Source of the DNA: Bradymonadia bacterium | Lineage (GTDB): Bacteria > Myxococcota_A > Bradymonadia > UBA7976 > UBA1532 | Assembly (NCBI GenBank): GCA_046290225.1 | Contig: JBKAGE010000080.1 | Span: 1-64,000 of the forward strand | DNA: 64,000 nucleotides | Direction: 5' to 3' | Shown here: positions 45,007 through 59,300 of the stretch, piece after piece | Numbering within the stretch: the stretch's first letter is position 1 | How the letters are laid out: each line of letters begins with the position of its first letter | The notes under the pieces: generated by a model | What the model saw: only the letters and a program-made list of their open reading frames with translations | What the model was told of the DNA's origin: nothing | The model's database searches: none | Translations under genes and position numbers: made by a program

Positions 45007-45151
45007 GGGGCACTCCTGGCGAATCTCTGACATGTGTTGATGCTCTGACACTATGGGCCGCCGCAGCGCCTTGGAAAGGGCGCCACAGGAAACACACCGT
45101 TCCTGTCGTCTCGAGTCGGCCTCTGTCGCCCATATCGATGTTGATCACTTC

Positions 45152-48100
45152 ATGAGGCATCGATCCATGCATCAGACCCACGCAGCCCCTCTCCGCCTCG
45201 AGCCCACCACCACCCACGGCGCCCCTCAGACCGATGCGGCAGCAGGCGCTGTCGGGGCTCAGCTACAGGCCATGGAGCTTTTGGGGCACATGGGTCCACA
45301 ACACATGGAGATGTCACCGGTGGCGCAGAGCGCCGCACTGCAGCCCATGGCCCAGCCCACGGGTCCGGCTCGAGCGCCCACGGCGAAGCCCATACCAACA
45401 CGCCACGGATCATCCTCTCGAGGGCTCGAAGAAGAGCTCGCGCTCGATGAAGACGAGTTGCCGCCTGAGGCCCCTCCAGAGGATGGCGATGTGGCAACCG
45501 CCGAGACTCAGTCAGACCCTGATGAAGCTGAGGCTCAGGAGGAGACGCCTGTAGAGGCTGAAGCCATAGAGGAGGATGCACCGCCTCCGGAAGAAGAGGT
45601 GATCTCCGATGCCCCGAACGCCCACGATGGAGAGGCACACACCAGCGAAGAAGAGGGCGACGAGGAGGCATCACCCAACCACCCACCTCAGGCTGAGGGC
45701 CCCACACACACGGACGCTGAGCACGCGAACACTGAGCACACGGACGCTGGCCTGGCAGACACAGAGCATACAAGTGCCGAGCAAAACCCACATCCACCCG
45801 AGGCGGGTGAGCACACAGACGATGTTGGTCCCAAGGATGCTCAAAGCAACGACCCTCAGAGCAAAGACGACACGCAAACGCTCGACGCCCCACCTGAGCT
45901 GAGCGCAGCTCTACAACACCCAGAAACCACTGGCGCGCCCTCTCCGCTGGAGCAGCACGGGCACGCACCAGCGTTGACACCTGGGGCAGAGCACATGCTC
46001 ACGCCAGAGCAGAACATGGCAGTGGATCCACAGCTCAACCTGCCTGCCTCTGCGCCGACACTTGTTGCCCCCGCTGTGATGTCTCCTGCCGTCGGGCAGA
46101 AGATGGCGGGGCCCCTCGCTGGGGTCTCCATCCCCGACAACGTCGTCTCTGAGCAGGTCATGCGTTTCATCGCCCCTGATCTGGCCACCACCCTCGACGA
46201 GGCCTCTGACCGTGGCGCTCAGGGGCTCTCGGAGCAGTTGGACCTCGTCGCGCAGGGAGCGACCTCGGCCGCCCACCCCATCGAGGCGCCCGCCGCTGCG
46301 ACCACGCCAGACCTCATCTCAGAGGGCGCAGCCTTGCTGCCAACATCCGATGCCGCAACAACGCTCTCCCCCATTGTCAAGCAAGCGCAAGGCCTTCAAG
46401 AGAGCGCCCTCGATGTCTTCGATGGCCAGGCCAGCGTCGACGCCCTGGTGCAGCGACCCGCTGATGACAGCGCGCCAGAGGGCACCCCACTCGTGGGGGC
46501 GCTGGCTGCTCTCAGCGAGCAGCTGAAGCCGCTCACCGAAGCTGCCGACTCGGCCTTTGCGGAGATCAAGACCAGCGTCACAGGCCATGGCCAGGCGGCG
46601 CAGAGCGCCCGCGACGAGGTACAGAGCTCCATCGCACAGGCTGATACAGAGATGCTGCATACGCCTGAGATAAAGCGACCTGCGCTGGCAGCCTCTCAGC
46701 TGGCAACGCCCACTCAACCACCCCGCAAGGTTGCGCTGCCCTCTGCGCCCAAGATCAAGTCGCCCGGCCACGCTCGAACAGCATCCGCAGATACACACAC
46801 AGAAGCCACGCGCTCGACGGGCGCAGAGCAGACAGCCACTCCGCCTGTAGCCGCGCCTCAGCCCGTCACCATGGCAGCCCCGACGCCCAAAGCCATGCAG
46901 CTCACCCCGCCCCTCCCTCGCGTCGCGGCGCAGCCGGCGAAGGCGGCAGCGCCAGTGATGGTTGCCCCAGCTGCCGAGGTCTCTGCGGGCGAAACCCCTG
47001 CGGCCCTCGACCACAATGCCGTGGACCTCGCCGTCGAGCCCATGGCGCCCGCGCAGCTCGACGACAAAACAGCGCCTTCTCCAGAGAGCGCGCCACAGTG
47101 CGAAGGGTGTGATGCCCCTGCTGAAGCCCCCGATCGGGGTCACACGCTCACCGAACAAGTGCCGCAGTTCAGCCACACACCCCAACCCATGAGCCCGCTG
47201 GCACCACTTGAGGGTGGGGTTGCGCCTGTAGTGGCGCCGCCTGAAGCCCTGATGGGTATCCCTGTCATTGGAGAAGCCTTCCAGCAACTCGGCGGTGACC
47301 TGCACAGTCAGCTCACCGAAGGCATGTCACACGTGAGCGAGGGCGTACATACACAGCTCGAGGGCACCCGTGGCGATCTCGACGCACAGCTGGGTGAAGC
47401 AGCAGAAGGTGCACGTACAACCTTCGGCGCTCAAGCAGAGCAGCTCGACGACGCGCTCCATGGACGCCAGGTGGCCCTCACCACAGCCCTGGGAGAGGCC
47501 GAGTGCGCTGTGGGGTGTGGTGCCAACACGCAGCGGGCCAGGGTCGGCCAGCAGGCTGGGGGTCGAACGGCTCAAGCCGAGGCGGCCACAGAGAGTCAGG
47601 TCGGCGAGGCCCACGCTCAGGGCGAAGCAGAGCTGGCGCGCATCACCGAGGAGGGGAAGTCCGGTGTCGCCGGGGCGCGTCGTCACGGCAAGACGGTCGT
47701 CACAGGCGTAGACGCCAAAGCCAAGACGTGCAGCGCTGAGACCAAAGCCCGCCTCGGCGCGCTCGCCACCGAGCTCACCGAGCACGAGGCCGCAGAGCTG
47801 ACGCGTCTCGACGAGACCAGGGCGCAGGCCATCAAGGATCTCGACGCGAAGATGGAGAGCGAGCGCCAGCGCATGGTGGACGAGGCCAAAGCCCAGGAGG
47901 CCGCCCTCGACGCCGAGATCGCCCGACGGGACAGCGAGATCCAAGGTGAGATCACCGAGCGAAAGACGCGACTCGATGAGCACGTGAAGATCGAGCACGG
48001 ATTCCTCGAGCAATCGGCGAAGACCGAAAAAGAGGATCTCAACAAGCAGCTCGCCAAGCAAATCGCCGCCATCGACAAAGAAACCACCGCTCAAGACAAG

Positions 48101-50380
48101 GCCCTCGAAGCTGAAGGCATCAAGCAAGCCAAAGCCGTCACCACCGAGGCACAGACACAGGGCAAGAAGGCCATCGCCATGGGCGAGAAGAAGGCCAAGG
48201 AGGCCATCGCCGCCGCCAACGCCCGGGCCAGCGGCCTCAGCGACGCCACCGAGGCGAGCAAGGTCCGCAGCCTGGGCTTCGATCGCGCCTCCACCGCCCG
48301 CAACCGAGCCAGGTCACGGGTCAGATCACTGGAGCGTCGGGCCAAGGTGCAATCGTCGGTGATCGCCTTCCAGACCAAGATGAACCGCGCGGGGCTCGTC
48401 GTGAGCGCCAAGCAGAAAAAGACCACTCTACAAGAGACCCACAAGGCCTCGGTCAAGGCCATCGACCAGCAGCTTGCCCACGGCAAGAAAGCTGTGCAGA
48501 AGCAAGCAGACGACGGCCTCAAGGCCATCGAGGCCGATCGCAAGCAGATGCTCGCGGCTCTCGCGCAGCACAAGCAGGACACCCTCGCCAAGATCAACCA
48601 GACCATCCAAGATGGGGAGGCCGAGATCTCCAAGGTGCGTGATGCCGCGCTCCAGAAAATCGAGACCGCCCACCAGAAGGCCGCAGAGCAGATCAAGAAG
48701 AAGACCGCCGATGCTCTGGCGAAGCTCGAGGCTGGATGCGATCGGGATCTCACTCGTCTGGAGCGGATGGCAGAGCGCACCAAGAAGCAGGTCACCGCAC
48801 AGATCACCACCGCCGAAGCCAAGATGAAGGGGCATATTCAGGTGGCGGCGCGCCGGGCGAAGCAGAAGATCAACCTGAAGGTGAACGCCATCAAGGCTCA
48901 GGGGCGGAAGGCTGTGAAAGCCGTGAAGACCTTCTCCGACGCAGCCCTGAAAGCCATCGACGCCTCCGCCACCGCGGCTCACATGGCCATCGGCAAGACC
49001 GGTACAGAAGAAGAGACCAAGATCCTGCAGGCCGGCAACATGCTGGAGCAGTCGCTCAAGCTGCTCGGCGACACCTACATGATCAACCTCAAGTCTGATC
49101 ACAAAGCTCGACTCAAGGGGCTCAAAGACAGCGGGAAGGCCGCGCGGAAGGGGCTCATCAAACACCGCCAGGCGCTGCGCAAGGACATCGACCAGGAGTG
49201 GGCCGACGACGCCCGGCGCGCAGCAGAGAAGCTGCTCGACGACAACGGTGTCGCCAACGTGGTCACCGACGGCGAGGCCACCGAGGCAGCCCTGATCATG
49301 ACCAGCCTGCCGGCGAAGGCCAAGAAGACCGCCTTCAAGGAGATGGACGACGATCGTTTCCAAAACCTGCTCGACGAGTTGCCGAGTGATCGCAAGATGG
49401 ATCTCTACGCCCACATGAGCGGCACCGAGGTCTCGGGCCACATCGCCCACAACTTCGCCAAATGGGCCGGTGAAGATGGCTACCTGAGCGCCAAGGAGAT
49501 CTCGGCTCTGATGGCTGACCCAAACATCACAGGCGAAGATGCAGCGGCTCTGGCCACCCTGCGCTCCAAGCTACAGGGCGCGAGCAAGCTCAACAATGAC
49601 GAGTGGGGAGACGAGACCACGGGCATGACCCTCGACGACTTCGCCCACGTGGCCAAGACGAAGGATCTCGACTACGGCTACACCTCGGGACTCGACTCGA
49701 TCAAAGAGAAGAAGAGCCAGGGACTGTTCACCGACCCGAAGCGGCAGGTGGACTGGCAGAAGATGAAGCAGAAGAAGATCGGGGATTGTTACTGGCTCGC
49801 CGCCCTCAACACACAGATCAAGCGAGACCCCGACTTCCCCAACAAGGCCATTCAGGAGAACAAAGACGGCAGCTACACCGTAACCCTGCCCAACCGGGGC
49901 ACCGTCACCGTCGAGCCCCTGACCGAGGCGGAGATGGCCACCACGGGCAACGCCGACGGCAACTGGCTCGCGGTGATGGAGAAGGCCTACGCCAAGAGCC
50001 GATCCAGCGAGCATGACGACGAGTACCAGGCCATCCATGGGGATCCCATCGAGCTGGGCATCAAAGACGCCACGGGCAATGAAGCCAACGTGGACAAGAT
50101 GAAGGATGTGAAGCCCACAGACACGGCGAAGAAGATGGAGGACGCCTTCAAGAACGGCAAGGTGGTCACTGCCTCGATCAGCAAGAGCAACAAGTACAAC
50201 CTGCCCGACGGCCACGCCTACACGGTGATGGGCTACGATCCGGTGAAGAAGACCGTCCAGCTGCGCAACCCCTGGGGCCACGGCGAGGGCAGCACCGGCG
50301 ACGGCAAGAACGATGGGGTGTTCACGCTCACGCTGGAGGAGTATCACGACATCGTAAGCCGTACGGCGTACGAAGACTGA
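45152..50380 (+). CDS. Giant low-complexity/coiled-coil protein with C-terminal EF-hand-like motif and calpain-like (C2) cysteine protease
   Basis: QKKIGDCYWLAAL, WLAVMEKAYAK, GHAYTV, LRNPWG; DGYLSAKEI EF-hand-like loop; start uncertain (45053-45167). Confidence 0.8.
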   Translation: MRHRSMHQTHAAPLRLEPTTTHGAPQTDAAAGAVGAQLQAMELLGHMGPQHMEMSPVAQSAALQPMAQPTGPARAPTAKPIPTRHGSSSRGLEEELALDEDELPPEAPPEDGDVATAETQSDPDEAEAQEETPVEAEAIEEDAPPPEEEVISDAPNAHDGEAHTSEEEGDEEASPNHPPQAEGPTHTDAEHANTEHTDAGLADTEHTSAEQNPHPPEAGEHTDDVGPKDAQSNDPQSKDDTQTLDAPPELSAALQHPETTGAPSPLEQHGHAPALTPGAEHMLTPEQNMAVDPQLNLPASAPTLVAPAVMSPAVGQKMAGPLAGVSIPDNVVSEQVMRFIAPDLATTLDEASDRGAQGLSEQLDLVAQGATSAAHPIEAPAAATTPDLISEGAALLPTSDAATTLSPIVKQAQGLQESALDVFDGQASVDALVQRPADDSAPEGTPLVGALAALSEQLKPLTEAADSAFAEIKTSVTGHGQAAQSARDEVQSSIAQADTEMLHTPEIKRPALAASQLATPTQPPRKVALPSAPKIKSPGHARTASADTHTEATRSTGAEQTATPPVAAPQPVTMAAPTPKAMQLTPPLPRVAAQPAKAAAPVMVAPAAEVSAGETPAALDHNAVDLAVEPMAPAQLDDKTAPSPESAPQCEGCDAPAEAPDRGHTLTEQVPQFSHTPQPMSPLAPLEGGVAPVVAPPEALMGIPVIGEAFQQLGGDLHSQLTEGMSHVSEGVHTQLEGTRGDLDAQLGEAAEGARTTFGAQAEQLDDALHGRQVALTTALGEAECAVGCGANTQRARVGQQAGGRTAQAEAATESQVGEAHAQGEAELARITEEGKSGVAGARRHGKTVVTGVDAKAKTCSAETKARLGALATELTEHEAAELTRLDETRAQAIKDLDAKMESERQRMVDEAKAQEAALDAEIARRDSEIQGEITERKTRLDEHVKIEHGFLEQSAKTEKEDLNKQLAKQIAAIDKETTAQDKALEAEGIKQAKAVTTEAQTQGKKAIAMGEKKAKEAIAAANARASGLSDATEASKVRSLGFDRASTARNRARSRVRSLERRAKVQSSVIAFQTKMNRAGLVVSAKQKKTTLQETHKASVKAIDQQLAHGKKAVQKQADDGLKAIEADRKQMLAALAQHKQDTLAKINQTIQDGEAEISKVRDAALQKIETAHQKAAEQIKKKTADALAKLEAGCDRDLTRLERMAERTKKQVTAQITTAEAKMKGHIQVAARRAKQKINLKVNAIKAQGRKAVKAVKTFSDAALKAIDASATAAHMAIGKTGTEEETKILQAGNMLEQSLKLLGDTYMINLKSDHKARLKGLKDSGKAARKGLIKHRQALRKDIDQEWADDARRAAEKLLDDNGVANVVTDGEATEAALIMTSLPAKAKKTAFKEMDDDRFQNLLDELPSDRKMDLYAHMSGTEVSGHIAHNFAKWAGEDGYLSAKEISALMADPNITGEDAAALATLRSKLQGASKLNNDEWGDETTGMTLDDFAHVAKTKDLDYGYTSGLDSIKEKKSQGLFTDPKRQVDWQKMKQKKIGDCYWLAALNTQIKRDPDFPNKAIQENKDGSYTVTLPNRGTVTVEPLTEAEMATTGNADGNWLAVMEKAYAKSRSSEHDDEYQAIHGDPIELGIKDATGNEANVDKMKDVKPTDTAKKMEDAFKNGKVVTASISKSNKYNLPDGHAYTVMGYDPVKKTVQLRNPWGHGEGSTGDGKNDGVFTLTLEEYHDIVSRTAYED

Positions 50381-51449: not shown

Positions 51450-51790
51450 AGAGAGAGTTTCGGGCACGGGCACGGGCACGGGCACGGGCACGAGTTGATT
51501 CGGGTGTGGACCCGTGGCCCTGCATGACTCCGCGCGTGGGTTTGTGGTGGTGGAGGCTCTACTCGGCCCCAGCAACTTATCAGTGGAGGTTTTTGCGCTC
51601 AATGCGCCCCATGTGCAAACGGGAACATGGTTTACAGATCTGGCGAGAGCTGAACTCTCATGGCCTTCTGAAGCGTATCAACTCAGCCTCAATGACAACC
51701 ATCGCCCTGAGCTCAGGATGGGCTGCGGGTCAACATATGTATCAACTCGTGCCCGTGCCCGTGCCCGTGCCCGTGCCCGAAACTCTCTCT
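51450..51790 (+). mobile_element. GTGCCC-arm palindromic element (copy 5)
   Basis: AGAGAGAGTTTC(GGGCAC)5GAGTTGAT...ATCAACTC(GTGCCC)5GAAACTCTCTCT; homologous spacer. Confidence 0.88.
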
Positions 51791-54156: not shown

Positions 54157-54229
54157 GGTGCAACTCCTCGACCAGACCCTCTGAGGTACCGTGCGCGCAA
54201 CCTCGCACGTCATGCATGCTCCATCAGGT

Positions 54230-54997
54230 ATGCGCTCAGCACAATACGACCACCTGCAAAATGTCTGTATCCAGGGTGCCAGCCGGGGCATCGGCCTCGC
54301 CCTCGTCGGCCGCATGCTTCAACGGCCTTCCGTAGGCCATGTCATCGCCACAGCGCGTCGGCCCGAGGCCTCGGAGGGGCTCTTCGCCCTCACCCAGCGC
54401 CATCCGGACCGCCTCATCACCCTCACTGTAGATGTCACCGACGAAGGCTCGATGGCTGAAGCTGCCCGGATCTCCACAGCGCGGGTGGGGCGTTTGCACC
54501 TGCTGATGAACGTCGCGGGTCTGCTCCACGCCCCCGACGGTATGGCGCCCGAGAAACGCATCGAGGCCCTCGATCCCGGTTTTCTGGCGCGCGCGTTCGC
54601 CGTGAACGCAACGGGGCCAGCGTTAATGGTTAAACACATGCTCCCGCTACTCCGGCACGACGAGCGGGCAGTCATCGCCAACCTCTCGGCACGGGTGGGC
54701 AGCATCGAGGACAACGGCCTCGGGGGCTGGTATGGCTACAGGGCGTCGAAGGCTGCGCAGAACCAGCTCACCCGCACCCTGGCCATCGAGCTGCGGCGTC
54801 GGGCAAAGCACGTGATCTGCGTGGCATTGCATCCCGGCACGGTGGACACAGCGCTCTCACGACCTTTTCGAGGCGGGGCGAAGCGCCGCTTCACCCCCGA
54901 CGAGGCCGCAGGCCATCTGCTCGACGTGATCGATGGCCTGGGCCCGGAAGACACTGGGGCGTTCTTCGCTTGGGACGGTTCACGGATCCCCTGGTGA
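54230..54997 (+). CDS. Short-chain dehydrogenase (CsgA/C-factor-like subfamily)
   Basis: GASRGIG, SARVGSI.DN.LGGWYGYRASKAAQN, LHPGTVDT. Confidence 0.9.
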   Translation: MRSAQYDHLQNVCIQGASRGIGLALVGRMLQRPSVGHVIATARRPEASEGLFALTQRHPDRLITLTVDVTDEGSMAEAARISTARVGRLHLLMNVAGLLHAPDGMAPEKRIEALDPGFLARAFAVNATGPALMVKHMLPLLRHDERAVIANLSARVGSIEDNGLGGWYGYRASKAAQNQLTRTLAIELRRRAKHVICVALHPGTVDTALSRPFRGGAKRRFTPDEAAGHLLDVIDGLGPEDTGAFFAWDGSRIPW

Positions 54998-55199
54998 GAA
55001 ATCCTGGCATAACCGTTCTTGTCGCCAAATATGCATCGCTGTTGAGGTCAACCAAACGAAGGTGCCCGATGGGCAACTCTTCTTCGCTCTGCTGTTTTGT
55101 CAACAGCCTCCAAATCAGAGGAATACAGGCTCTTCTTATGGTGTATCTGATACGAGAGCCTCCGAGAGGCGAGGGCTCTTGTGGATTGGGGAGATACAC

Positions 55200-56219
55200 A
55201 TGGCAGACGATCAGGCACTGACCGGCCCAGACATTGAGCGGCTGGTCAAACGCTACCATCTTGAGCGTGCACGATACGAGCAGGCTGCAGTACAAGTCGG
55301 CACCCGTATCAGTGCTGCGCTGAGGCGCGAGGCCCGCCTGAGATTCATGATCTCGACCCGGGCCAAACATCCTCAGGACCTCAAAGGTAAGCTCCATCGC
55401 AAGCGCGAAAATCCGAAATATACATTCGCGGCGCTTGACGAAAACCTCAACGCCATCGTCAACGACCTGGCTGGATGCCGTGTCGTAGTTTACTCCGCTG
55501 AAGATCTACAGCAGGTGACTCGGATCATCGATGGCCTGTTCGACATCCCAGATCTGCCAGATACACACCTCGACAAGAGCCAGGAAAAAGAAGGGTACCG
55601 TGCTACCCATCGGCTCGTAGCCCTCCCGAATGATGAGAACTCGTCAACATCAGGGGCGATCTGTGAAGTGCAAATCTGTACCGTCGCAGCTCACCTGTTC
55701 AACGAGCTTGAGCATGACATCACGTATAAAACACATGGGGTGAAACCAACCCCGGAAGCCTGTTCGTTGCTCGATGATCTGCGATGGCTCTCTCTGGTGT
55801 CTGATCACACAGCAAGTCGCCTGATTCAGGCACAACAAGTCGCACGCGCCAACATGGAAGAGCTGACCTCACCGGATACGCTCAGATTTGCCCTTGAAGG
55901 CGCTCTCGGACGCCCCATGAGTGGTGACTTCACACGCCTACTGTCACTGCTTGGCTCCATATTGGAGACCGTGAATCTCAGCATCCTGCACTCTTTGGGA
56001 GGCGTCCACCAGCTTCTGAAATGCGGACGAGCGCTTTCACACACATTATCTCTCGAACACACCGATGATGTGATCTACATCACGCTGGGACTCACCGAGC
56101 AATTCGGCGAGGAGCTCGTCGAGCTCTCCTCGATGTGGTCAAAGCCCGAGCTGCCTCTGAGAGCAGCACTGCTCACATGGGCATCTGCTAGGTCAACTGT
56201 GCACGAGAGCGCTGAATGA
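55200..56219 (+). CDS. RelA/SpoT-domain small alarmone synthetase-like protein with C-terminal extension
   Basis: RAKHPQDLKGKLHRK, DLAGCRVV, GYRATH, EVQICT..HLFNELEHDITYK; GGGGAG RBS before ATG 55200. Confidence 0.85.
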   Translation: MADDQALTGPDIERLVKRYHLERARYEQAAVQVGTRISAALRREARLRFMISTRAKHPQDLKGKLHRKRENPKYTFAALDENLNAIVNDLAGCRVVVYSAEDLQQVTRIIDGLFDIPDLPDTHLDKSQEKEGYRATHRLVALPNDENSSTSGAICEVQICTVAAHLFNELEHDITYKTHGVKPTPEACSLLDDLRWLSLVSDHTASRLIQAQQVARANMEELTSPDTLRFALEGALGRPMSGDFTRLLSLLGSILETVNLSILHSLGGVHQLLKCGRALSHTLSLEHTDDVIYITLGLTEQFGEELVELSSMWSKPELPLRAALLTWASARSTVHESAE

Positions 56220-56257
56220 GGCACACTGCCTGTGTCGATGCAAACAAGGAGATCCAC

Positions 56258-56773
56258 ATGGCCCCTCGCTTGACCATCACCAACGCCATCGAAGCACTGG
56301 AGAAATTCAACCAGCGCTATGACACACTGGATGTGTTCGCGGACGACCTTTACGAACTCCAACAATTCAGACGGGATGGCTCACCTCCACCAGGGCTGCA
56401 GGTCAGTGGAAGCCATACACTCACGGTTGTCGACACCCCCTATGAAATTGAACTCCTTCCTGAGAATGGGGTCGCGCGCATTCAACGGGTTCGTTCATCT
56501 GTCAGCCCTCACAAAATCATCGCAGGGGCAGCGATCGGGGGCATCATCGGCGCGACCCTCGAAACGGCTGTGACAGAAAAGGAGGGTGTCGGTGCCCTCG
56601 GCCTACTCCTCGGCCTGCTCGTTGGAGGTACTCTTGCTTCACATCAGAGCACAGCCCCGAGCGTTCGACGGGTCTTCACCCTCAACTTCGACTCAGAAGA
56701 GCAAAAGTGGAGGGCCTATGATGGTGGCCTCGTAGATTGGATGAAGATGAAACTGTTGCCCGCTGCCTCATGA
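56258..56773 (+). CDS. Hypothetical protein with two glycine-zipper TM helices
   Basis: AAGGAG RBS (alternative ATGA-coupled start at 56216); GAAIGGIIGA and GALGLLLGLLVGG. Confidence 0.75.
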   Translation: MAPRLTITNAIEALEKFNQRYDTLDVFADDLYELQQFRRDGSPPPGLQVSGSHTLTVVDTPYEIELLPENGVARIQRVRSSVSPHKIIAGAAIGGIIGATLETAVTEKEGVGALGLLLGLLVGGTLASHQSTAPSVRRVFTLNFDSEEQKWRAYDGGLVDWMKMKLLPAAS

Positions 56774-58878
56774 GCACCCTGGAAGCACAGCAAGCGGCAA
56801 CCACCATAGACATGGATCTCGACGATCTGCTCGAGCTATACATCGACGACGCCCTCAAGGCCCTCGATCGAGAGACCGCCGAGCGCAAACAGCTCCGGGC
56901 CGCCTTCGAATCGGGCACTCCGCTCACCGCCAAGGTGCAGCTCGATCTCTACGATCCGATCGACGGTGAGATCGTCACCGTCCCTGCCGGCGCAGTGGTG
57001 CACGTGGCCGAGCACCAAGGCGACATTTTGATCGGCAAGCTCTCCGACAACACCCACAGCCTCGCCGTCGTCTACGAGCCCCCGGGTCGTTGGATCCCCC
57101 GAAAGCACTTTCTGCCCCTGAGCACACTCGTCGATCGCACCCGCATCACTCAAGGCGAGTCACCGAGCGTGAAGAGCGCGGGCCCCGGTGGCTTCAAAGG
57201 CGCCGGCCTCAAGGGCCTCGACGATGGCACCGCCCTGGCGATCCAGAGCATCGACGCCCTGAACGCCCGAGACGCCTTCGCTGTGCTGCCTCGGGGCACC
57301 CGGATTTTGATCGACGCCGCTCAATTGCAGCTCGAAGAGGGCGCCCCGACCCCAAGCGGTGAGATTTGGGTAGAGGTCACCGCCGCCGTGGGCGACGTGC
57401 GTGACAAAGCGGGCGTCACCGAGATGCCCGAGATCCCGATCCGCATCACTGGGGGTCCTTCGGGCACCCTGCCCTTCGAGGCGCTGCAGCCGCTGAGCTT
57501 CAAGACCCACGTGCTCACCCCCGTGGCCTACGCCCAATATCTGGTGGAGCAGCGGGGCCGTCGGCGGTTCTTGCGGCGGATGACCGGCGCGGGCCTCGCC
57601 GCAGCCTTCCTGGCCATGGACGGCATCTGGTGGACCACTTCGAAGGCGGAGTGGCCCCCCAACGCACCTCCTGCAGATCGGGTGCTCTCGGCGATGATCC
57701 CTCAGCTCGGCGCCTTGCTGGGCTACCTGCGGGCCGGCGGCAAGTACTGGTTCGAGCTCGACGGCCCGCTGATGTCGCTCAGAGAAGCCCGCCGCGGCCC
57801 CGCTGTACGTGCGCTCTCCGACGCCCTCGATCAAATCGCAGCCATCTCGGATCACACATGGGATCTCTGGCGTGGCGCGTTCTATCGCCGAGTGCACGTG
57901 GGCTGGAACGAGCACAAACACTATCGCACTGACAAAGACGGCAAACGGACTTACACCCACTCCACCTGGACCAAGAGCTACCGCAAGATCTGGTGCGAGC
58001 CCCCCGGACTCTCGGGCACCTGGTCCGTGCTCCAAGACTGGGACACAGCGGATGACTGGCGTCGCTCCAAGGGGCATCGCATGCTCAACGTGCCCATCTT
58101 TCAGCTGCTCGAATGCACCCCAGAAGAAGCAGAGTCCCAGTTTCGCACCATGCGGATGGACGTCTCCTTCGCTCGGGAGGCCACGATCTCCGCGGTGACG
58201 GCAGCCCTGTGCAGCGCCCCGGCGGCCTTCTACAGCGACATCCTCGGGGCCTTCAACGGCGTTTCTCAGATGCCCCACCCTGCCCAGAGCCGCTTCCCCG
58301 CTCAAAAGCCAGCCTTGCTGGCTATGGGGGCCATCGCTGGGGCCTTCATCGCTCAGAGCAGTCATCGAAAGCAGGCTGCGGAGCTGGGTCAGAACAAGAA
58401 GGCCCTCGGCGCGCTGCTCGAAACGCAGCTGCGTACGGTGCCGGAGATGGACTTCGAGCAGGCCTGGAATGCTTTCTTTGGGATCCCGAGCTCACAGGCG
58501 GTGGTGCAGACCACTGCCGAGCGCGGCCCGGAGACCCACGATCTGGGCCGCCGCGCTCAGAGTTTCACGTATGTGCACAGCGGAGGGTTCGACCGAGGGC
58601 GGCCGCTGGACTCGATCTACGTGGATGCTGGGCCGGTGAAGACCTACTTCCCGGAGATCGCCCAACGATGGGGACAGGCGTCACAGGCGCTCGCTGACGC
58701 GTTGCGCGAAGCGGAGGTGTTGTTGCCTGTGCTTCAGAACGTGGTGGGTACTGATATTCTCAATGCCCGGATCCGGGAAGATGCCTCTGAGGCCAGCAGC
58801 GGTGGATGGAAGCAATCGCTGTGGTTCGCGGCGCCGATTTGGGGTGCTGCGTTGCTTGATGGATTGCTCAAACGCTGA
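56770..58878 (+). CDS. Hypothetical 702-aa membrane-associated protein with internal RRRFL motif
   Basis: ATGA overlap with the upstream gene; host-like codon usage; GRRRFLRRMTGAGLAAAFLA near residue 262; further hydrophobic segments. Confidence 0.7.
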   Translation: MSTLEAQQAATTIDMDLDDLLELYIDDALKALDRETAERKQLRAAFESGTPLTAKVQLDLYDPIDGEIVTVPAGAVVHVAEHQGDILIGKLSDNTHSLAVVYEPPGRWIPRKHFLPLSTLVDRTRITQGESPSVKSAGPGGFKGAGLKGLDDGTALAIQSIDALNARDAFAVLPRGTRILIDAAQLQLEEGAPTPSGEIWVEVTAAVGDVRDKAGVTEMPEIPIRITGGPSGTLPFEALQPLSFKTHVLTPVAYAQYLVEQRGRRRFLRRMTGAGLAAAFLAMDGIWWTTSKAEWPPNAPPADRVLSAMIPQLGALLGYLRAGGKYWFELDGPLMSLREARRGPAVRALSDALDQIAAISDHTWDLWRGAFYRRVHVGWNEHKHYRTDKDGKRTYTHSTWTKSYRKIWCEPPGLSGTWSVLQDWDTADDWRRSKGHRMLNVPIFQLLECTPEEAESQFRTMRMDVSFAREATISAVTAALCSAPAAFYSDILGAFNGVSQMPHPAQSRFPAQKPALLAMGAIAGAFIAQSSHRKQAAELGQNKKALGALLETQLRTVPEMDFEQAWNAFFGIPSSQAVVQTTAERGPETHDLGRRAQSFTYVHSGGFDRGRPLDSIYVDAGPVKTYFPEIAQRWGQASQALADALREAEVLLPVLQNVVGTDILNARIREDASEASSGGWKQSLWFAAPIWGAALLDGLLKR

Positions 58879-58948: not shown

Positions 58949-59300
58949 GATGTGGGGCTCGCTCCGCGGGCAAGAGAGTTTTTCGGGCACGGGCACGGGC
59001 ACGGGCACGGGCACGAGTTGATACATACCTGGACCCGTGGTCCTGCATGGCGCCGCTCCTAGGCTCTTGGTGGTGGAGGTTCTACTCGGCCCCATATATC
59101 TCTCATTGGAGGTTTTGGCCTCCATACACCCCAAGAACTGAACGAACTGAGAGTTCAGGCATACATCATCTCAGCTCAATGACTGCCTTCGTCCTGAGTT
59201 TAGGATGGGTCACGGGTCCAGGTATGTATCAACTCGTGCCCGTGCCCGTGCCCGTGCCCGTGCCCGAAAACTCTCTTGCCAGCGGAGCGCTCCCCATATC
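58949..59300 (+). mobile_element. GTGCCC-arm palindromic element (copy 6)
   Basis: Inverted arms extending to GATGTGGGG/CCCCATATC; (GGGCAC)5/(GTGCCC)5; homologous spacer. Confidence 0.9.

Follow-up and report, generated by a model that had tools for sequence, protein, structure and literature searches.

CBASS and Pycsar pair an enzyme that makes a signal nucleotide (a CD-NTase or a pyrimidine cyclase) with an effector that has two transmembrane (TM) segments. Other two-gene modules are built on a small alarmone synthetase (SAS). In the toxSAS type II toxin-antitoxin (TA) systems (FaRel2-ATfaRel2, PhRel, PhRel2, CapRel and FaRel; PMC7229694, PMC11782079), the antitoxins covered in the accessible text of PMC11782079 occlude either the donor site, as pZFD and YXXY do, or the acceptor site, as does Tis1. 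In type I PANGU, according to the accessible part of its description, the nucleoid protein Pag1A binds the C-terminal domain of the GRel SAS Pag1B and activates pppGpp synthesis, neither gene being toxic alone (10.64898/2026.04.06.716658). A further SAS subfamily, FunRel, has bacterial and fungal members (PMC7229694, Dataset S5) and is described as paraphyletic (10.1101/575399, in excerpt); the available portions of these sources give it neither function nor partner, and the word FunRel is absent from neighbourhood datasets S3/S4 of PMC7229694, as far as these were accessible. Here we describe a cassette of two genes, a FunRel-like SAS (gene 1, P0001) and a small partner protein (gene 2, P0002), in a stretch of 64,000 nt of contig JBKAGE010000080.1 from a Bradymonadia bacterium, hereafter the window; coordinates without a locus prefix are window positions on the forward strand (Table 1).

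Like the toxSAS systems, the cassette consists of a lone SAS and a small partner in a conserved, overlapping bicistron, keeps the G-loop tyrosine intact, and is predicted to involve direct binding with extension of a beta-sheet. It differs from them, as far as they are described in the sources at hand, in that its SAS appears to belong to another, FunRel-like subfamily, its partner has no profile match in the libraries searched, and this partner is predicted to sit on a dedicated C-terminal domain and not at the ATP-donor or acceptor site. With type I PANGU, again judged from the accessible part of its description, it shares the bicistron, the order of SYNTH domain, helical linker and partner-binding C-terminal domain (for the cassette from the model only) and (pp)pGpp as the likely product; however, the cassette partner is a glycine-zipper protein of about 170 aa and not a YejK-like nucleoid-associated protein, its gene lies downstream of the SAS, and the pattern of decay leans to inhibition, not activation. 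CBASS and Pycsar resemble it in having a nucleotide-making enzyme followed by a small gene which, in the window copy, encodes two hydrophobic segments, but the cassette enzyme is a RelA/SpoT homologue (RSH) pyrophosphokinase and not a cyclase by Pfam and fold, with no such match in PADLOC, its two-TM segments are not conserved, and direct binding is predicted. The PADLOC profile PDC-S33, which we take from its name to be a single-gene candidate, gives a weak match over the SYNTH core of gene 1 (E 1.4e-10, residues 32-166), but only 128 of its 349 positions are covered and two other family members have no PADLOC match at 1e-20. The cassette most likely works as a toxSAS or PANGU module does, as a SAS under direct partner control, and by the tests run it is a member of neither.

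The SAS and its partner are a conserved two-gene cassette. Scans led by the SAS yielded 53 loci (10 from genomes and 43 from metagenomes), 29 of which have a whole SAS with DNA continuing downstream, the other 24 being broken or ended by the contig. Gene 2 lies directly downstream in all 29 (25 distinct), with a stop/start overlap in 28 and one of exactly four bases (-4, ATGA) in 20. In the reverse search, SAS sequence stands directly upstream in 16 of the 17 regions around strong gene 2 matches, the exception being a frameshifted remnant; six weak zipper-only genome matches (L066-L071), which have no SAS, were left out. The conserved pairing for which the initial annotation had proposed a neighbourhood check is thus present from both sides. 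No third conserved gene was found, and neighbours vary between loci; long open frames that precede the SAS at L008, L020 and L048, considered as fusions, look like non-coding read-through. Purifying selection acts on both genes (dN/dS 0.09-0.40 in unsaturated pairs), and their distances are similar, with a Mantel rho of 0.29 that shows co-inheritance only. Our literature search, which covered few subscription papers, found no published description of the SAS-partner pair, so the cassette, which had been called possibly undescribed from the letters alone, apparently is so.

The distribution of the cassette is sporadic in Myxococcota and Planctomycetota. Strong matches were obtained in 4 of 401 genomes of the phylum, the host included, in 14 of 401 genomes of the class of a Polyangiales record, and in 2 of 401 Planctomycetota genomes; the host genome carries one copy. 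The block has a GC content of 55.7% against 64.4% for the genome, and of 5,408 genome windows only the bottom 0.8% are as poor in GC. Its GC content at third codon positions (GC3) is 0.60, whereas three genes that flank it have 0.76-0.81, which upholds the first description of it as an AT-richer block behind a short-chain dehydrogenase (SDR); its two tightly linked open reading frames (ORFs) are confirmed as well and lie on the plus strand. The cassette is rare and horizontally acquired, and its composition is foreign to the host.

Gene 1 had been recognised from the letters as a stand-alone RelA/SpoT synthetase, and this was confirmed: PF04607 matches residues 53-179 with E 9e-15, above the Pfam cut-off, and neither an HD domain nor the regulatory domains of long RSH proteins were found in it by Pfam or in the model, so that with its lone SYNTH domain it is an RSH small alarmone synthetase by both Pfam and fold. 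Its homologues, 61 matches among 8,000 scored candidates, are 37-50% identical to it, self excepted. The SYNTH residues listed in Table 1 are invariant in an alignment of 41 sequences and correspond to donor-site, Mg-binding and G-loop residues of FaRel2 described in the accessible text of PMC11782079; the full catalytic set is found in 38 of the 41 whole SAS locus copies, Arg being accepted at position 64. As judged from the alignment, the catalytic residues of gene 1 are intact.

The residues that the initial annotation had called non-canonical are present as quoted. They are, however, not peculiar to the window copy but traits of the clade, common to the FunRel rows of Dataset S5 (Jimmy et al. 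2020, PMC7229694, available in part), with which we compared the unusual motifs of gene 1 by eye. Asp60 replaces the phosphate-binding Ser in most copies, Ser standing at this position in 4 of 41 whole SAS copies, and the Cys of EVQICT is not conserved across the SAS family. A Rhizobium plasmid protein whose core is nearly identical to a listed FunRel row is 33% identical to gene 1 over 210 columns (probability 99.8), and the C-terminal domains of the two proteins do not align. Gene 1 thus resembles FunRel in its diagnostic motif pattern, and to this subfamily, for which the consulted parts of the sources describe no function or partner, it would contribute a member with a conserved partner. 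In the SAS tree the deep forks, including the placement of FunRel, are not settled, and one outgroup row (G000_C73) is in the wrong frame. On two Rhizobium plasmids (L140:3980-8645 and L141:3980-8627), the FunRel-type SAS is followed, in the same order, by a sigma70-r4 protein of 748 aa and then a DEAD-box helicase, an arrangement that is a candidate for a second FunRel system.

The AlphaFold model of gene 1 (predicted local distance difference test, pLDDT, 92) consists of the SYNTH domain, a long helix at 185-219 and a helical domain at 225-338. It is nearest to RelQ (Z 18.5, root mean square deviation (rmsd) 2.5, 182 aligned residues) and RelP (Z 18.2, rmsd 3.3, 191 aligned), followed by CapRel (Z 11.8, rmsd 4.0, 179 aligned), Tas1 (Z 10.0, rmsd 4.3, 160 aligned) and FaRel2 (Z 7.4, rmsd 4.3, 140 aligned). 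Since RelQ and RelP make (p)ppGpp, guanosine acceptors are favoured, with the reservation that fold does not fix specificity; we lean slightly towards (pp)pGpp as the product, while pyrophosphorylation of tRNA seems unlikely and (pp)pApp a little less likely still. The first helix is basic and conserved in the SAS family (R36, R38, R39, R42), so RNA binding may occur, the window copy being without several of these residues. Five viral contigs (L011-L015) carry closely related SAS genes of 360-400 aa, 27-28% identical to gene 1 and without a partner; the viral SAS loci without a partner number 8 in all (26-28%). The host genome also has a long Rel as well as other genes with HD domains, which could buffer (p)ppGpp, and in it we noted two more weak RelA_SpoT matches (G000:C73:53233-53487; C81:91722-92090) and two stand-alone HD_4 genes (C47, C82).

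At 50% identity, the partner family falls into at least 232 clusters. Searches with gene 2 gave no significant Pfam, NCBIfam, PADLOC or PHROG family and no sequence relative in the Protein Data Bank (PDB); fold searches gave no clear relative either (best E 0.059 with Foldseek against PDB, best Z 3.2 in VIA, best viral E 0.08), which by itself does not make the fold new. Its atlas matches are all below 0.8, among them 'PH_gly_zipper' (0.75, 21% of members), which offers no more than a lead. Among 130 members, Pfam matches are to glycine-zipper-type models only, three of which match 16, 15 and 14 members, and none is to a nucleoid protein. The AlphaFold model, built from 130 sequences (pLDDT 88.6, predicted template modelling score 0.85), is a single alpha/beta domain in which the first zipper segment forms a helix (93-111) and the second a buried strand (117-125, pLDDT ~90). 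The best conserved residues are L14, F27, D30, G71, G119, L121, G123, W151, Y154, G156, W161 and K163, and the top couplings tie the zipper to the core (14-121, 29-104, 29-108, 74-119), in an analysis that is underpowered (an effective 179 sequences for 168 columns), is not independent of the AlphaFold alignment, and also lists 91-127, which is compatible with a hairpin. According to the model and the couplings, the N- and C-terminal parts make up a single folding unit, which speaks against the separate soluble N-domain, zipper and C-domain first drawn for this protein.

Two glycine-zipper helices had also been read in gene 2. The window copy does have two 19-residue hydropathy peaks (1.83 and 1.74), but the second segment is modelled as a beta-strand, and two windows of at least 1.6, a rough test for membrane segments, occur in no more than 19 of 130 homologues and in 5 of the 29 distinct cassettes. 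In 8 of the 29 the maximum of the partner lies below 1.3, and 6 of these partners stand beside a full catalytic set. By this measure membrane character is no constant feature of the family, and gene 2 is predicted to be mainly soluble, its glycine zipper tucked into the soluble fold. At L005:11029-15039 the partner domain continues in frame into a complete Mokosh kinase-helicase, MkoA (residues 168-1321, E 3e-225), with MkoB next to it; the fusion lies directly behind an intact SAS, and its partner domain is one of those without a membrane-like segment. Two other homologues are fused to a Tad2-like anti-defence domain (PF11195, P0177) and to a dATP/dGTP diphosphohydrolase (PF18909, P0079), possibly as phage counter-defence. 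A phage-borne copy or antitoxin mimic, which these two fusions suggested, is unsupported, because zipper-eroded partners adjoin SAS genes in bacterial genomes; the partner was not found in IMG/VR (59 motif matches, no HMM match), in GenBank phages or in plasmids.

The partner is predicted to bind the C-terminal domain of the SAS. Folded as a 1:1 complex, the pair scores 0.70 against 0.01 for the best of 3 controls, the mark applied being one that 116 of 157 solved pairs and 2 of 215 mismatched pairs reach and that is rough here, where our own alignments were used. The runs agree in at least 89% of contacts, and the partner has a pLDDT of 81 in the complex. In the model, the partner strand 136-141 and the motif at 152-167 face SAS residues 249-266 and 301-312; the confident interface is confined to the C-terminal domain, away from the active site, and other residues are uncertain. 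Since the partner has no solved relative by sequence, recall of a similar complex by the model is unlikely. The interface columns of the partner are better conserved than its average (0.55 vs 0.46).

Broken copies suggest which gene is lost first. The SAS is broken and the partner whole at seven loci (L038, L045, L052 and L055, found by the SAS; L157, L160 and L165, found by the partner), and likewise at L046/47 and L061, where the partner is whole up to the contig end. Both genes are broken at L026, L027, L033, L050/56 and L169, and at L009, L057 and L060 the SAS is broken and no partner was found. No locus has a whole SAS with a broken or absent partner, L168, a full 340-aa divergent SAS ORF, being counted as whole. 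L019, with a whole SAS, and L055, with the SAS deleted and the partner kept, are at least 95% identical. This pattern is suggestive of an SAS that is lost first, as a toxin would be. At L165:9744-10958 the synthetase part is in one frame with the partner and most of the C-terminal domain is gone, a decay product or a natural fusion. A different course is seen in L158:2864-3892, L159:10269-11372 and L161:8703-9824, which share a chromosomal site and form one clade whose SAS lost K64, G92, Y133, H137 and H172 before the clade split, with a shortened G-loop and an eroded partner zipper.

Enrichment in defence islands, another check proposed in the initial annotation, was found. Near-full-length PADLOC matches to defence genes lie within about three genes on each side of the cassette in 8 of 32 loci against none of 20 control stretches, which come mostly from cassette-bearing genomes and gave partial-domain matches only (one-sided Fisher p ~0.014, by hand; a count of 7/32 gives 0.025). 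These figures come from a census of 113 scanned neighbours and 30 hand-picked proteins, partly Pfam-guided, with a small control and partly related loci; kinase, RecQ-like and sigma-54 matches are uncounted in both sets. The systems concerned are Wadjet (L001), Mokosh (L005), BREX (L008, and L167, with the cassette placed between pglZ and brxD), type I restriction-modification (RM; L157, L170 and L171) and Septu with RM (L164). The genes between the type I RM genes and the cassette at L157:7805-8887 and L171:11613-12794 have no Pfam or PADLOC match and are candidate defence genes.

We regard it as an even call that the cassette is a mobile defence or TA module in which the SAS is a growth-arresting effector and the partner inhibits it allosterically. 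The pairing, the coupling, the purifying selection, the intact catalytic residues, the foreign composition and the defence-adjacent positions, all observed here, support it; the folds and the interface are model predictions, and we infer the toxicity, the inhibitory direction, the product and a phage trigger. Gene 2 would be co-translated with the SAS, mainly soluble, and bound to its C-terminal domain by an added beta-strand and the W-x-x-Y-D-G-G motif, holding the enzyme off without plugging the active site; its loss or displacement, for example in phage infection, would release the catalytically intact SAS and arrest the cell, and the glycine zipper would be an optional membrane tether or packing element, not an essential output. 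Several observations weigh against this proposal. The precedents, as far as the sources describe them, point elsewhere: toxSAS antitoxins block a substrate site (PMC11782079), and binding to the C-terminal domain is the mode of an activator (10.64898/2026.04.06.716658). The decay asymmetry is not significant (7:0, p 0.06; 4:0 for the unbiased SAS-found loci, p 0.20; length-based two-thirds null), and some of the breaks consist of one frameshift each and may stem from errors of assembly. The dead-SAS clade is still under purifying selection (SAS 0.15-0.27, partner 0.32-0.40), which would not be expected of a simple toxin-antitoxin pair. On the SAS side, conservation is lower in the interface columns than in the remainder of the C-terminal domain (0.44 vs 0.53), and the FunRel homologue on Rhizobium plasmids has a different downstream gene and not the cassette partner. 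The window copy is without the family-conserved basic residues R21, K28, R38, R39, R66, R112, R119, R314 and R322 and so may be weakened. No clear defence neighbour was seen at 24 of the 32 loci, nor in the window, whose flanks are ordinary genes by Pfam (PADLOC on three window proteins).

The same interface would also serve a PANGU-like activator, which we consider rather unlikely: neither gene would be toxic alone, the SAS would be an inert oligomer, and gene 2 a sequestered sensor, for example at the membrane via its zipper, that infection frees to switch the SAS on through the C-terminal domain. The modelled architecture follows the logic of type I PANGU as far as that is described, the RelQ-like long helix could support oligomers, and many copies retain the zipper periodicity, with a mean column identity of 27%. 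With an activator, however, either gene should be lost first, and decay runs 7:0 against the SAS (a weak argument); zipper-less partners stand beside intact enzymes, and gene 2 matches no nucleoid protein by family or by fold. Those zipper-less partners also bear on an alarmone-gated two-TM effector, the CBASS/Pycsar-like branch of the initial annotation, of which an improbable version survives in which gene 2, a soluble protein of new fold, stays attached to the C-terminal domain of the SAS until, on infection, the SAS or its nucleotide releases the tucked zipper as a membrane hairpin that depolarises the cell, zipper-less and enzyme-dead clades being derived decoy or sensor forms. The two hydrophobic segments of the window copy, the members that match Pfam glycine-zipper models, the conserved D29, D30, E33, R74, K108 and K163, which could form a ligand site, and the erosion of the zipper in the dead-SAS clade, as expected if both outputs were lost together, would fit; if it held, (pp)pGpp or (pp)pApp would be an immune second messenger. 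It is weakened because zipper-less partners adjoin intact enzymes (the six cassettes with a full catalytic set noted above) and the predicted contact is direct protein-protein binding; moreover, few copies have two hydrophobic segments, one zipper-less partner is fused to the cytosolic MkoA, and the model buries 117-125 as a strand. The other branch, a membrane antitoxin or sensor controlling the SAS, retains partner control, which the complex model and the decay pattern favour, while "membrane" is probably a misnomer across the family. That gene 2 neutralises the product instead of the enzyme, as a new alarmone hydrolase or a nucleotide sponge (a type IV-like antitoxin), is very improbable: a conserved D-x-F-x-D-D-x-x-E acidic cluster with basic residues and the two fusions to phage nucleotide-handling domains speak for it, whereas the acidic residues are only 69-92% conserved, the fusions are only two among the 150 matches listed, no HD or other enzyme family or fold matches, and a direct SAS interface is predicted. 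Equally remote in our estimate is an ordinary accessory stress-response SAS that makes modest amounts of (p)ppGpp with an auxiliary subunit and has no defence role; the closeness of the fold to the non-toxic RelQ and RelP, the many loci without defence neighbours and the buffering that the long Rel and HD-domain genes of the host could provide agree with it, and the patchy distribution (14/401, 4/401, 2/401), the low GC, the frequent decay and the placement inside defence operons do not.

Table 1. Positions of the cassette, its parts and the adjoining genes in the window.
Feature	Position	Strand	Remarks
Low-GC leader between SDR stop and gene 1	54998..55199	+	ribosome site 55190-55199
Gene 1, FunRel-like SAS, 339 aa (P0001)	55200..56219	+	
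SYNTH core of gene 1, PF04607, residues 53-179	55356..55736	+	R54, K56, K64, D89, R94, G-loop Y133, H137, E156, Q158, H165, E169, H172 intact
Helical C-terminal domain of gene 1, ~residues 220-338, behind long linker helix	55857..56213	+	predicted partner-binding surface 249-266 and 301-312
Gene 2, partner, 171 aa (P0002)	56258..56773	+	alternative start 56216 (ATGA overlap with gene 1 stop)
Glycine-zipper segment of gene 2, residues 87-127	56516..56638	+	modelled helix 93-111 and strand 117-125; eroded in many homologues
Conserved C-terminal strand and W-x-x-Y-D-G-G motif of gene 2, residues 136-167	56663..56758	+	predicted SAS-binding face
Flanking SDR	54191..54997	+	GC3 host-like; outside cassette
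Flanking 702-aa gene, overlaps gene 2 stop	56770..58878	+	no Pfam match; outside cassette

The starts at 55200 and 56258 are preceded by an identical 15-nt ribosome-site context. The leader probably holds the promoter; a search of the plus strand in front of the cassette for a sigma-70-like promoter gave none matching the consensus, and no operator-like repeat was found near the cassette. The SDR, to which Pfam itself gives adh_short only, resembles what we take to be the CsgA/C-factor type. Homologues of the 702-aa gene, 40-46% identical, are present in 6 of 15 genomes of the same family, and at all five of its loci that were checked neither the cassette nor the SDR lies within 1.5 kb; because family genomes carry this gene without the cassette, we do not count it as a cassette member. 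Elsewhere in the window, the protein encoded by 45053-50380 (1775 aa) has a long N-terminal stretch that is acidic, of low complexity and coiled-coil, and ends in a cysteine protease of the calpain family (PF00648, E 1.8e-17). A short repeat that reads RARARA or PVPVPV in ORFs has several intergenic copies (approximately 51480-51512, the 51860 region, 58990-59040 and 59160-59210), whose similar flanks suggest a REP-like element.

With this cassette, the FunRel-like branch of SASs gains its first conserved partner and a testable role. RelA/SpoT domains have been reported as a minor class of effectors of fungal NOD-like receptors (NLRs) (PMC10197012, in part), and a later fungal survey gives, in its accessible text, no well-covered RelA/SpoT cluster (10.1101/2022.03.16.484565); the fungal NLR effectors might be linked to FunRel. 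The partner family, for which no family or fold match was found, appears from the complex model to exert its control of the SAS on a separate C-terminal domain; the antitoxins so far described in the sources available to us block the active site instead. Since the enzyme-dead clade is under purifying selection, the complex may have a second role that needs no catalysis. To the defence systems of myxobacteria and planctomycetes, the pair adds one more candidate cassette.

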